From contig CAWJWJ010000001.1 of assembly GCA_963846575.1 (NCBI GenBank), positions 1,244,530 through 1,308,529 of the forward strand: 64,000 nt of DNA, in the 5' to 3' direction. The position numbers were made by a program. The number at the start of each line of letters is the position of its first letter. Within the stretch, counting starts at the first letter, position 1. Origin of the DNA: an uncultured Nitrospiraceae bacterium (lineage in GTDB: Bacteria; Nitrospirota; Nitrospiria; Nitrospirales; Nitrospiraceae). Below, one piece after another: positions 30,001-33,000 of the stretch.

Positions 30001-33000
30001 ATAGTTTCCCACAGTGTTATGCACATGTGTGGATAACTTTTCCGATCGAAGTGCCTGCGGCGTAATAGCATGTATTACGTGGACAATATTCTTGATAAAT
30101 TGGGGCAAAATCTGTTGACAGCTTTTTGGTTGGGTGTATACTCCAGCCGAAAGGTGGGGTGAAGTGGGTGGAAATGGAGAAATAGATTCTGCTCACCCCT
30201 CCCACGAGCCGGTTTTAGTCGAAGAGATCATGTTCTGGTTGCAGTGTAAACCAGGCGGAGTTTACGTGGACTGCACTCTCGGATACGCAGGGCTCGCTTC
30301 TCACATCCTCGGTCGCACCGCTCCAGACGGCATCCTTGTCGGAATTGATCGTGATGCCACGGCACTTGCTGAGTCGCGCAGGCGGCTCAGTGCCGATAGC
30401 GCTCGGGCGCGTCTGCTGCACGGAAACTTTCGCGAACTCAAATCGCATGTTGTGGAAAGCGGAGTAAGCCGCGTGGATGGCGTGGTCTTTGACCTTGGCG
30501 TGTCATCTCCTCAACTTGATCGTGCTGAGCGGGGATTCAGTTTCCGTGAAGACGGTCCCCTGGATATGCGCATGGATCAAAGTCAAGGTTGCACTGCCGC
30601 CGATCTCATTCGTGAGCTCCCCGAAACTGAGCTGGCCGACCTCATTTATAATCTGGGCGAAGAGCGTTATTCACGAAGAATTGCCCGGGCCATCGTGCAG
30701 GCACGAACTCTAGGCGCGATTGAGACCACCTGGAAATTGGCAGCCGTCATTGAGCGCGCCGTGCCCGCCGCTTATCGTCACGGGCGAATTCATTGCGCCA
30801 CGCGTAGCTTTCAAGCGTTACGGATTGCCGTGAATCGTGAACTGGACGTGCTGGAGCCGGCGCTTCGGGATGCCGTCGATATCCTGACGCCCGGAGGGCG
30901 AGTCTGTGCCGTTTCCTTTCATTCGCTTGAGGACAGAATTGTAAAACATACGTTTCGGACTCTGGCCAATGGCCCCGACGCGTCGGTGAAGGTGCTGACC
31001 AAAAAACCAGTCACAGCCTCGGACAATGAGCGTAACCGAAATCCGCGATCGCGAAGCGCAAAATTGCGCGTCGTCGAGCGGGTTTCCAAGGAGTCTATGC
31101 AATGAAAGCCGTTGCGTTTGCTGCGGTCACGTCGCTGATCTTGCTCTTCGTGTGGGAGCGGGTGGACATCGTTCGCATCGGCTATCAAATCGAACGTCTC
31201 AAGACGCAGAAGGTCTCCCTTGAACGGGAACGCGACGAATTGCGCGTCAAGCTGTCAGGCTTCACGGCACCTGAACGCATCGCCCGACTCGCGACTGACA
31301 AGTTAGGGATGATGCAGCCGGAGAAAGGCCAGGTCGTGGTGATCAATATGGAGCCGGAGGCGCCGGCGCATCCGATCGCCGCCGAGGGTGAGGTGCGGAT
31401 CGCCAAACACATCGTGACGCGGAGAGTTCGATAGTATGGCCATGCCGTTTCGAGGTCGCCGTATTGTGGTGGCTTGCGGGCTGGCCGTGGCGTTTCTCCT
31501 CGTCATCGTCCGTCTGGTGAATCTCCAGGTTCTGCAAGCGGCGGAATTGACGGTGAGGGCCGACCGACAACACCAAAAAAACGTGACATTGGAGGGGGCG
31601 CGCGGCACCATCTACGATCGAAACAGCAAAGTCCTGGCGATGAATATGGAAGTGCCGTCTGTCTTCGGGGTGCCGACCTCGCTGGGAAATCCAGGCCTGA
31701 CGGCACGAAACCTGTCGCCGATTCTGCGGGTCAAGGCGACGGAACTCGAGAAGAAGCTCAAACAGGAAAAACATTTCGTCTGGCTGGCGAGAAAGCTGGA
31801 TCCCGAACAGGGGCGACGGCTCGAACGGCACCCTTTGGACGGTGTCGGAGTCGTCATGGAGGGCCGGCGCTATTATCCCAAGGGGCCGCTCCTCTCGCAT
31901 GTGCTGGGATTCGCCGGGATGGATGATCGGGGATTGGAAGGGGTGGAGCTGCGGTACGAGCAGGAATTGAGGGGCGAGAAGCGGGCCGTGGTGTTGCAGC
32001 GCGATGCGCTGGGACGGGCGGTTTTTCCCAAAGGTCTGAATCAGGACGGCGCGGCAGCCGGGCACAATCTGACCCTCACGGTGGACGAAGTGATTCAGTA
32101 TATTGCCGAGAAAGAATTGGACGAGGCCGTAAACCGCTCCAATGCGAAGTCCGGCAGCATCGTGGTGATGAATCCCAAGACCGGGGCCGTCTTGGCTATG
32201 GCGGTCAGTCCCAGGTTCGATCCCAACACGGTGGCGGCTCTGGCCCCGGATCGATGGCGCAATCGCGCGTTGACGGATACCTATGAGCCTGGCTCAACCA
32301 TGAAGGCCGTGATTGCAGCGGCGGCGCTTGAAGAAAAAGTGATGACGCCCGGCAGTATGTTATATGGGGAAAATGGACAGTTTGCCATTGCCAACACTGT
32401 GATCCATGACCATGAGAAGGCAGGGTGGATGACCTTTGCGCAGATGATTCACAAGTCGAGCAATATCGGTGCGGCCAAGGTGGGCATGGCACTCGGTGAG
32501 TGGCGGGTGTTCGACTATCTGAAGGATTTTGGATTCGGCGATAAGACCGGAATCGACTTGCCCGGGGAGACCGGAGGATTACTGCGGGGCCCGCGTCAAT
32601 GGGGAAAACGATCCCTGGCTTCCATCTCCATGGGACAGGAAATCGGGGTAACTCCGCTGCAGATGGTGACCGCGGTGGCCGCCATCGCCAATGGCGGTGT
32701 CCTCATGAAGCCCTATGTCGTTTCGGAAATTCGAAATGCCAAAGGCCAATTGGTATCGCAAACTCTTCCTCAAGCCAAGCGGCGCATCATCTCATCCGAT
32801 ACCGCCAGGACCCTGACAACCCTTCTGGAAGGAGTCGTGACGCACGGAACGGGAGGAAAGGCGGCGATTCCAGGATATCGCGTGGCAGGAAAGACCGGCA
32901 CGGCTCAGAAGGTGGACCCGCGGACCGGCGCCTATTCCTCCACTCTCCTGGTGGGCTCTTTTCTCGGGTATGTTCCGGCTGAGGATCCGCAGTTGGCCAT

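Follow-up and report, generated by a model that had tools for sequence, protein, structure and literature searches.

mraZ normally heads and controls the cluster of cell-division genes (the dcw cluster). The closest described system is the autoregulated mra/dcw promoter of E. coli, Bacillus subtilis and Mycoplasma genitalium (passages of PMC12957436 and bioRxiv 2022.02.09.479790), with which the locus described here shares three GTGG boxes at a 10-bp period, placed just behind the -10 element at one site per genome. According to these passages, an MraZ site consists of three GTG(G/T) boxes six nucleotides apart (PMC12957436), and in B. subtilis the triple box is likewise unique in the genome (bioRxiv 2022.02.09.479790). 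The MraZ proteins of the three species also have in common with ours the SpoVT-AbrB fold, both DxxxR motifs and the equivalents of Lys13, Arg15 and Arg86, residues described there as essential (passages of PMC12957436).

An ectopic mraZ works in Neisseria elongata, which indicates that MraZ acts at a distance (passages of PMC9395523), and Corynebacterium glutamicum MraZ acts on ftsEX (passages of bioRxiv 2022.02.09.479790). In multicellular Neisseriaceae the dcw cluster likewise has a head without mraZ, but there the gene has been deleted (passages of PMC9395523). What sets MraZ activity is stated as an open question in the same source. In model bacteria this input of MraZ is hard to study, as the gene is itself part of the feedback loop.

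Here we describe an order of nitrifiers with a wide distribution, taken to be Nitrospirales from the names of its relatives (Nitrospira), which appears to have broken this loop and kept both halves. In contrast to those Neisseriaceae, mraZ is kept in 70 of 71 genomes, has moved and has a new promoter, and the box is retained at the dcw cluster. The order-wide separation of mraZ from the retained box is confirmed. It is an independent line of evidence that controlling the division genes downstream, beyond its own gene, is what MraZ is for. In a literature search with subscription papers largely outside its scope, we located no report of mraZ outside the dcw cluster, or of RusA in place of RuvC, in Nitrospira; the passages checked of PMC8871954 do not mention a displaced mraZ.

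In the genome studied, the dcw cluster is complete within the window, by which we mean the whole stretch of 64,000 nucleotides that was analysed. It runs from rsmH as first gene to ftsZ as last (Table 1). Gene identities are based on Pfam, and the three Mur ligases beside mraY received their individual names from the gene order. No MraZ gene was found upstream of rsmH in the window. The sole MraZ gene of the genome lies on the minus strand at C2:299240-299680, between an HTH_17 gene and rusA, and these coordinates confirm the position given in a preliminary description of this DNA. The same description had the dcw cluster start at rsmH without mraZ, with a triple repeat behind the rsmH promoter, and both observations hold. 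It did not cover the repeat linked to the HTH gene, the disappearance of RuvC, the marked divergence of MraZ or the probable start of rsmH inside the box.

Table 1. Features of the dcw locus in the window and of the separate mraZ operon of the same genome
Feature	Position	Strand	Remarks
Pair of DnaA-box-like 9-mers (TTATGCACA, TGTGGATAA)	30017..30036	.	98 and 87 nt upstream of -35
Sigma-70-type promoter TTGACA-16-TATACT	30115..30142	+	-35 at 30115-30120, 16-nt spacer, -10 at 30137-30142
Putative MraZ-type operator, GTGG/GTGG/ATGG, 10-bp period	30151..30177	+	GTGG 30154-57, GTGG 30164-67, ATGG 30174-77
rsmH (mraW)	30164..31105	+	now first gene of the cluster; probable start
ftsL, ftsI, murE, murF, mraY, murD, ftsW, murG, murC, murB, ddl, ftsQ, ftsA, ftsZ	31102..47831	+	putatively controlled dcw genes
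Extended-cluster tail: pgeF-type, yggS-type, proC, an ORF we take to be yggT-like, divIVA, beta-lactamase-family hydrolase	47871..52322	+	
Gene of about 106 aa, no Pfam family	52319..52639	-	
mraZ operon	C2:298579-300020	minus	outside the window
HTH_17 gene	C2:299696-299893	minus	65 aa; mraZ lies between this gene and rusA

The promoter before rsmH agrees with the consensus in 11 of 12 letters. Behind it, the sequence shows the arrangement by which an MraZ operator is recognised, namely three GTG(G/T) boxes, spaced by six nucleotides, at a promoter. The triple repeat overlaps the predicted transcription start region, the ribosome-binding site and the probable start codon of rsmH. The pair of 9-mers further upstream was assigned to DnaA by what we take to be the DnaA-box consensus. 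No Rfam family was found in nine leader loci. At the other end of the extended cluster, a DUF167 identity was considered for the gene at 52319-52639 and rejected, as no Pfam family matched.

We surveyed 71 genomes of the order, 69 with rsmH and 70 with mraZ, and designated its families f1-f4. In none of the 69 genomes with both genes does mraZ adjoin rsmH (0 of 30 in the preliminary description), the closest distance being 22.5 kb. Outside the order, mraZ stands directly before rsmH in 71 of 72 genomes of the phylum, the 72nd having no listed row, and in 43 of 43 further genomes of the class (45 drawn, minus one already counted and one without MraZ match). The triple box, previously noted in 28 of 30 loci, is found at the rsmH promoter in 45 of the 50 loci fetched from the 69 (the 30 best-scoring and 20 picked to cover small groups) with at most one mismatch, and in 47 with at most two. 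In five loci, all of f2, the box is down to two repeats or decayed, and MraZ is intact there.

The outgroups show where this promoter comes from: 20 of 21 fetched loci carry the same TTGAC..TA.. promoter followed by GTGG x3 directly before mraZ. Because the outgroups have promoter and triple in that place, the coding sequence would be the part that left and the control region the part that stayed at rsmH. The comparison thus supports that the ancestral promoter and box remained while the mraZ coding sequence departed, and that the promoter at 30115..30142 is the ancestral mraZ/dcw promoter. A tblastn search with 91 MraZ proteins against 1 kb upstream of rsmH in 50 loci gave no mraZ remnant beyond two matches with E of about 0.04.

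Since the box overlaps the start of rsmH, it could have been kept merely as ribosome-binding site and start codon, or be read by another protein, with a diverged MraZ that has no control of dcw. The start in this genome lends some weight to this explanation. The GTG of box 2 is the only in-frame ATG, GTG or TTG between the -10 element and the conserved HEPVL motif of rsmH, and AGGTG immediately precedes it; rsmH therefore probably starts inside the box. By the rule used, the box holds the sole plausible start in 13 of 50 other loci, and in 11 of 17 among other f1 loci. Unlike at the autoregulated promoters, the rsmH start thus seems to lie inside the operator in many genomes. The low identity of this MraZ to other Nitrospirota MraZ (27%) points the same way. 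Nonetheless, an in-frame start is available downstream of the box in 37 of the 50 loci. Ten f3 loci have their conserved HEPVL codon at a distance of 110-299 nt, and the triple still lies 39-41 nt behind TTGAC; across the loci the box keeps a distance of 35-41 nt from TTGAC even with the rsmH start 110-299 nt further on. The residues with which MraZ reads DNA are, in addition, invariant. We therefore consider a mere translation signal, or a site for another protein, very improbable. Judged by its fixed distance to the promoter and the varying gene start, the box is tied to the promoter, as would be expected of an operator.

The pattern of conservation within the box is uneven: core letters are 95-100% conserved, except for the first letter of box 3 (65%), and spacer letters mostly 36-54%. 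With a weight matrix built from the boxes of 46 other genomes, the rsmH site ranks first in this genome, at 30.1 bits compared to 15.3 for the next site. A GTGG triple with at most one mismatch is reached by only 4 of 2000 random 700-nt windows. The strict box pattern matches once each in 49 of the 71 order genomes, with 48 of these matches in the rsmH leader, and the reversed pattern used as control gave 2 matches. The preliminary description had placed the triple box at this promoter and one other place in the genome, using a pattern it does not state; we could not reproduce this count, as plain GTGG-N6-GTGG-N6-GTGG has no perfect site and 18 one-mismatch sites in the whole genome. From the position and conservation of the box, binding of MraZ to it is highly likely.

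The displaced MraZ has two SpoVT-AbrB repeats (PF02381, 51 and 46.8 bits, cut-off 23), and its predicted model (pLDDT 90.7) matches the solved MraZ 9QLG in Foldseek (E 6e-11). Residues D11, K13, R15, D84 and R88, which cover both DxxxR motifs, are invariant in 70 of 70 proteins; K13, R15 and R88 align with Lys13, Arg15 and Arg86 (passages of PMC12957436). In contrast to the proteins of the autoregulated systems, this MraZ remains under the cut-off of the NCBIfam equivalog TIGR00242 (88.3 bits, cut-off 98.35), and is thus a divergent member. Two residues that are invariant in 21 outgroups are replaced, R72 by H/Y and Q86 by A/T/G, and MraZ specificity could have shifted with them.

Compared to the 27% identity between this MraZ and other Nitrospirota MraZ, the latter share 42-47% among themselves. 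RsmH shows no such gap (46.5% compared to 47.0%). In trees made of Nitrospirota rows alone, the stem branch of the order measures 1.65-1.67 changes per site for MraZ and 0.04 for RsmH. By these trees, MraZ diverged sharply on the branch where mraZ moved. The divergence is compatible with faster evolution once mraZ had moved and also with a foreign copy having taken its place. The second would make MraZ a xenologue that came with rusA and displaced the native gene. Besides the long stem branch, it has in its favour that MraZ is 27% identical to MraZ of the same class but 33-35% identical to that of Neisseria, Listeria and Bacillus, the latter values coming from tblastn, a different method. Yet no donor of MraZ or RusA was found, the named organisms among the protein matches listed being all of the Nitrospira group, and placement beyond the phylum is out of reach of trees that hold Nitrospirota rows alone. 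Fast evolution after a change of context would also look the same. For the source of MraZ, the atlas searched gave generic MraZ clusters, and the RsmH query against 50% representatives returned nothing relevant. A foreign origin is thus possible, though we lean towards a native gene that moved and then evolved faster.

In its new location mraZ is part of a gene pair that has not been separated in any locus we have seen. Directly behind mraZ lies rusA, in 70 of 70 loci of the order and in 73 of 73 further named loci (80 minus 7 duplicates), hence in 143 of 143, compared to the 25 of 25 on record before. The gaps between the two genes are short in f1 and f3. Around this constant pair, comF, fmdB, the HTH gene and the chromosomal position vary.

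The HTH gene had been detected before mraZ in 22 of 25 loci, a sample biased to one family. Across the order it is present in 37 of 70 loci, and the high frequency stands for f1 (24/28) and f3 (13/13) but does not extend to f2 (0/26) and f4 (0/3). It is also found in 66 of the 73 further named loci, for example in N. moscoviensis, and is absent in N. defluvii. The distribution amounts to about four losses. Searching elsewhere in genomes without the gene at the mraZ locus gave matches of at most 50% identity, and the 72 outgroups contain no orthologue at E 1e-17. Seven of the nine closest named relatives of the genome studied have no HTH gene, and by this comparison the genome belongs to a lineage that is losing it.

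The operon promoter of this genome has no MraZ-type box, the best triple having 4 mismatches; this agrees with the earlier statement that no GTGGG repeats precede the HTH_17 gene. The broader claim that the mraZ operon is without a box of its own and has lost autoregulation needs to be divided. Among the 57 loci of f1, f2 and f4, none has an MraZ triple with at most two mismatches at the mraZ operon. In f3, on the contrary, 11 of 12 operons have a GTGG-like triple (at most two mismatches) upstream of the -35 element, with low matrix scores. The mraZ operon of f3 may thus be an exception to the loss of autoregulation.

The HTH protein (65 aa, PF12728 at 67.5 bits) is a stand-alone winged helix with no effector or coiled-coil domain. 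The name BldC had been attached to it on the basis of family and size. The fold gives this some ground, as BldC ranks first in Foldseek with the HTH model; at E 8e-3 and 27% identity, with RdfS almost equal and no match at E 0.001, the rank is a weak one, and neither phmmer nor a profile search against PDB recovered BldC by sequence. With the winged helices BldC, RdfS and Xis (passages of PMC5859096; PDB 6AMA, 8DGL) the protein shares a length of about 65 aa, HTH_17 as only domain, the fold, and a candidate site made of short repeats one turn apart upstream of the -35 element. BldC itself binds repeats spaced by one helical turn, and at whiI it protects -50 to -80 (passages of PMC5859096). By an offset of 2 that we derived from secondary-structure ranges and not from a residue-level alignment, the head-to-tail and DNA-contact residues of BldC, Glu16, Phe21, Arg22, Thr27, Arg30 and Trp31 map to E14, L19, K20, T25, R28 and Y29; there is no equivalent of the wing His (BldC His46). 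The likeness is at fold level only; the protein probably works like BldC.

A candidate operator lies next to the HTH gene. TG(A/G/T)CA repeats precede the TTGAC of the operon by about 15, 25 and 35 nt and read TGACA, TGACA, TGTCA in f1 and TGGCA x3 in f3; the core TGNCA, at one-turn spacing, is also self-complementary. Allowing up to 3 mismatches over its 15 letters, the TGDCA triple, defined from HTH-bearing promoters among loci that are kin and not independent, is present in 32 of the 36 promoters that have the HTH gene and in 0 of the 33 that do not (one locus has no promoter in reach). All 64 further HTH loci have it as well (two are without promoter in reach), and seven loci without HTH score 3-6. 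The background rate is 2 in 320 promoter-like anchors. The protein has lost Arg24 in only three HTH loci, and these are the three whose repeats are worst (score 5); the three losses may be one event. In ten of ten genomes picked for a perfect site, the exact triple is confined to this position.

Thereby the protein differs from BldC in several respects beyond its sequence. The repeats read TGNCA at 10 bp, compared to AATT-N4-C at 9 bp for BldC; the single exact triple per genome does not match the large, pleiotropic regulon of BldC, although degenerate sites are possible; and the gene is dispensable in two families. The genome studied has these repeats at C2:300020-299996, with 3 mismatches; a genome scan puts them only in 8th place, and they are no better than those of close relatives without HTH (3-6). 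The scan for a wider regulon did not separate sites from background. The TGNCA triple is probably the predicted operator of the HTH protein, in degenerate form here, and from its co-occurrence with the gene we judge binding by the HTH protein to be likely.

These repeats might instead be MraZ sites, with autoregulation altered and not lost. The case is strongest in f3, whose repeats read GTGGCA and in which 11 of 12 operons have the GTGG triple mentioned above. However, the f3 operon repeats do not exceed a matrix score of 8.4, compared to at least 23 for the dcw boxes (on which the matrix was trained), the f1 repeats read TGACA/TGTCA, and the 33 promoters without HTH lack the repeats or have them in decayed form though mraZ remains. 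MraZ as reader of these repeats is improbable on this evidence, and we retain the HTH protein in that role. We also considered whether the TGGCA repeats stand for a sigma-54 promoter and rejected this by eye, the period being 10 and TTGC missing at what we take to be the expected spacing.

The gene behind mraZ brings in a second change on the same branch. RuvC is present in 72 of 72 outgroup genomes, compared to one 24-bit match among the 71 genomes of the order. Four order genomes, one per family, have RuvA and RuvB, and neither RecU nor Hjc was found in any of the four, in a survey that covered RuvC, RecU and Hjc. The RusA protein (PF05866, 37.1 bits) has the equivalents of Asp70, Asp72, Lys76 and Asp91 by alignment to 1Q8R, a motif kept in 70 of 70 proteins and shared with RusA of the E. 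coli prophage DLP12 and of Aquifex aeolicus (passages of PMC10956419). It lacks the equivalent of Asn73, with Gly at this position; the role of Asn73 beside that pattern is minor (passages of PMC10956419). RusA-family genes were seen in 5 of the 72 outgroup genomes, all of them too dissimilar to be found with the protein query.

RusA is regarded as rare and prophage-linked (passages of PMC1193525). Unlike known RusA, that of Nitrospirales is a fixed chromosomal gene tied to mraZ, in genomes that have kept RuvAB and lost RuvC, and it has a basic N-terminal extension in f1-f3. From the catalytic motif and the distribution of the genes, we are fairly confident that RusA stands in for RuvC. Such a replacement, with RuvAB kept, would be an exception to the usual RuvC/RecU pattern (passages of PMC1193525). 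The departure of mraZ, the loss of ruvC and the fixation of rusA behind mraZ are three events that, by gene content, fall on one branch.

Taken together, we propose the following sequence. On the Nitrospirales stem, the mraZ coding sequence would have left the head of the dcw cluster, with promoter and operator staying behind and rsmH becoming the first gene. A separate operon with a sigma-70 promoter, (HTH)-mraZ-rusA, which in most cases lies downstream of comF, would supply a strongly diverged MraZ. This protein would oligomerise and bind the GTGG triple immediately after the -10 element. Because mraZ is no longer read from the dcw promoter and lies outside the controlled operon, next to rusA, the usual negative feedback would be gone and the level of MraZ set elsewhere. 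In f1 and f3 it would be set by the small excisionase/BldC-fold protein on the three TG(A/G/T)CA repeats, and by a bare promoter where the gene has been lost. On the same branch, ruvC would have been lost and a catalytically complete phage-type RusA fixed behind mraZ. As rusA is fixed in this position, division regulator and probable Holliday-junction resolvase are presumably co-transcribed.

The position of the box and the homologues make repression the likely sign of MraZ action on dcw. In passages of two studies MraZ acts in the other direction, raising dcw expression in Neisseria elongata (PMC9395523) and being reported as an activator in Mycoplasma gallisepticum (PMC12957436). The account as a whole has MraZ supplied by a separate operon and repressing dcw through the retained box with no feedback, at a level set by HTH where that gene is present; it seems to us rather likely. 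The gene arrangement and its conservation, the co-occurrences and the co-loss are direct observations. For the new promoter, the candidate inputs are the small winged-helix protein, together with its predicted operator, and the transcript shared with RusA.

The adjacency of mraZ and rusA suggests that DNA repair and cell division may be linked in a new way. SOS control was considered and rejected, a LexA DNA-binding domain having been found in one of four order genomes. A LexA-independent checkpoint, in which unresolved recombination intermediates would cause a joint rise of RusA and MraZ from their one operon and septation would be delayed, with the BldC-fold switch on top, is a speculative reading that we think unlikely. 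Equally doubtful is the role that MraZ would have in it, a signal-driven brake instead of a feedback thermostat.

The pairing could also be a frozen accident, in which a phage-derived HTH-rusA unit took in mraZ and provided it with a steady promoter, and no coupling of recombination to division exists. This alternative concerns the purpose of the pairing alone and not its anatomy. RusA and HTH resemble phage families, HTH has been lost several times, three of four order genomes have no LexA domain, and a shared constitutive promoter can serve two essential genes over a long time. It has to explain, however, why the mraZ-rusA pair is intact in 143 of 143 loci while comF, fmdB, HTH and chromosomal position changed, and no close phage copy was found in a search for a phage source (best viral matches 29-33% for RusA and 40% for HTH, none for MraZ). 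We give a frozen accident about an even chance.

Two observations concern the surroundings of the dcw cluster. DnaA-type boxes upstream of the dcw promoter are found in 12 of 12 f3 loci, there 62-65 nt upstream of the -35 element, in 4 of 17 f1 loci, and in none of 18 f2 and 3 f4 loci, compared to 0.6% of random 300-nt windows; a replication input is possible. Finally, two f3 genomes have comF-HTH-mraZ-rusA tail-to-tail with the distal end of the extended dcw cluster, and there the orthologue of the gene at 52319-52639 is the last gene of the comF-HTH-mraZ-rusA group. The position marked by this gene may be the first landing place of the mraZ operon.

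The DnaA-type box TTATCCACA is found 62-65 nt 5′ of the dcw -35 element in all 12 f3 loci (L103-L114; f1 to f4 denote families of the Nitrospira order). Such boxes precede the dcw promoter in 4 of 17 f1 loci, and none was found 5′ of it in f2 and f4 loci.

Several f3 loci (L103, L106-L108, L112 and L113) have long dcw leaders of 200-300 nt, in which a shared stretch, GAGCCCG..GATGCCG, bears an inverted repeat. A short hydrophobic ORF is present in two of the long f3 leaders, and an Rfam scan gave no match among those scanned. At locus L029 (genome G008) an additional GTGG triple, the MraZ-type box, lies 247 nt 5′ of the codon for the conserved HEPVL motif of rsmH, besides the triple at the promoter.

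The f2 mraZ promoters, where the small HTH_17 gene is absent, often have an inverted repeat such as TAGATGGTTTTATCTA within the -35/-10 spacer. This repeat may be a site for another regulator; the -10 element itself accounts for it in part.

Features located in the window or in individual loci
Feature	Location	Strand	Context
DnaA-type boxes	window 30017-30036		upstream of dcw promoter
Conserved gene, ~106 aa	window 52319-52639	(-)	tail of dcw region
Spacer inverted repeat	L035, L037, L038, L040, L042 and other f2 loci		mraZ promoter

No LexA DNA-binding domain was found in the whole genome carrying the window (99.9% complete), and the tested f2 and f3 genomes likewise yielded none.

The conserved gene at the dcw tail matched no Pfam family; in two f3 genomes its counterpart closes the mraZ-rusA unit. 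RusA of f1-f3 (L001:481-1220 region and homologues) is extended at its N-terminus by a variable, basic stretch of ~30-100 residues, which f4 RusA lacks. One f4 MraZ (L088, genome G004) has 30 residues inserted ahead of the final beta-strands.
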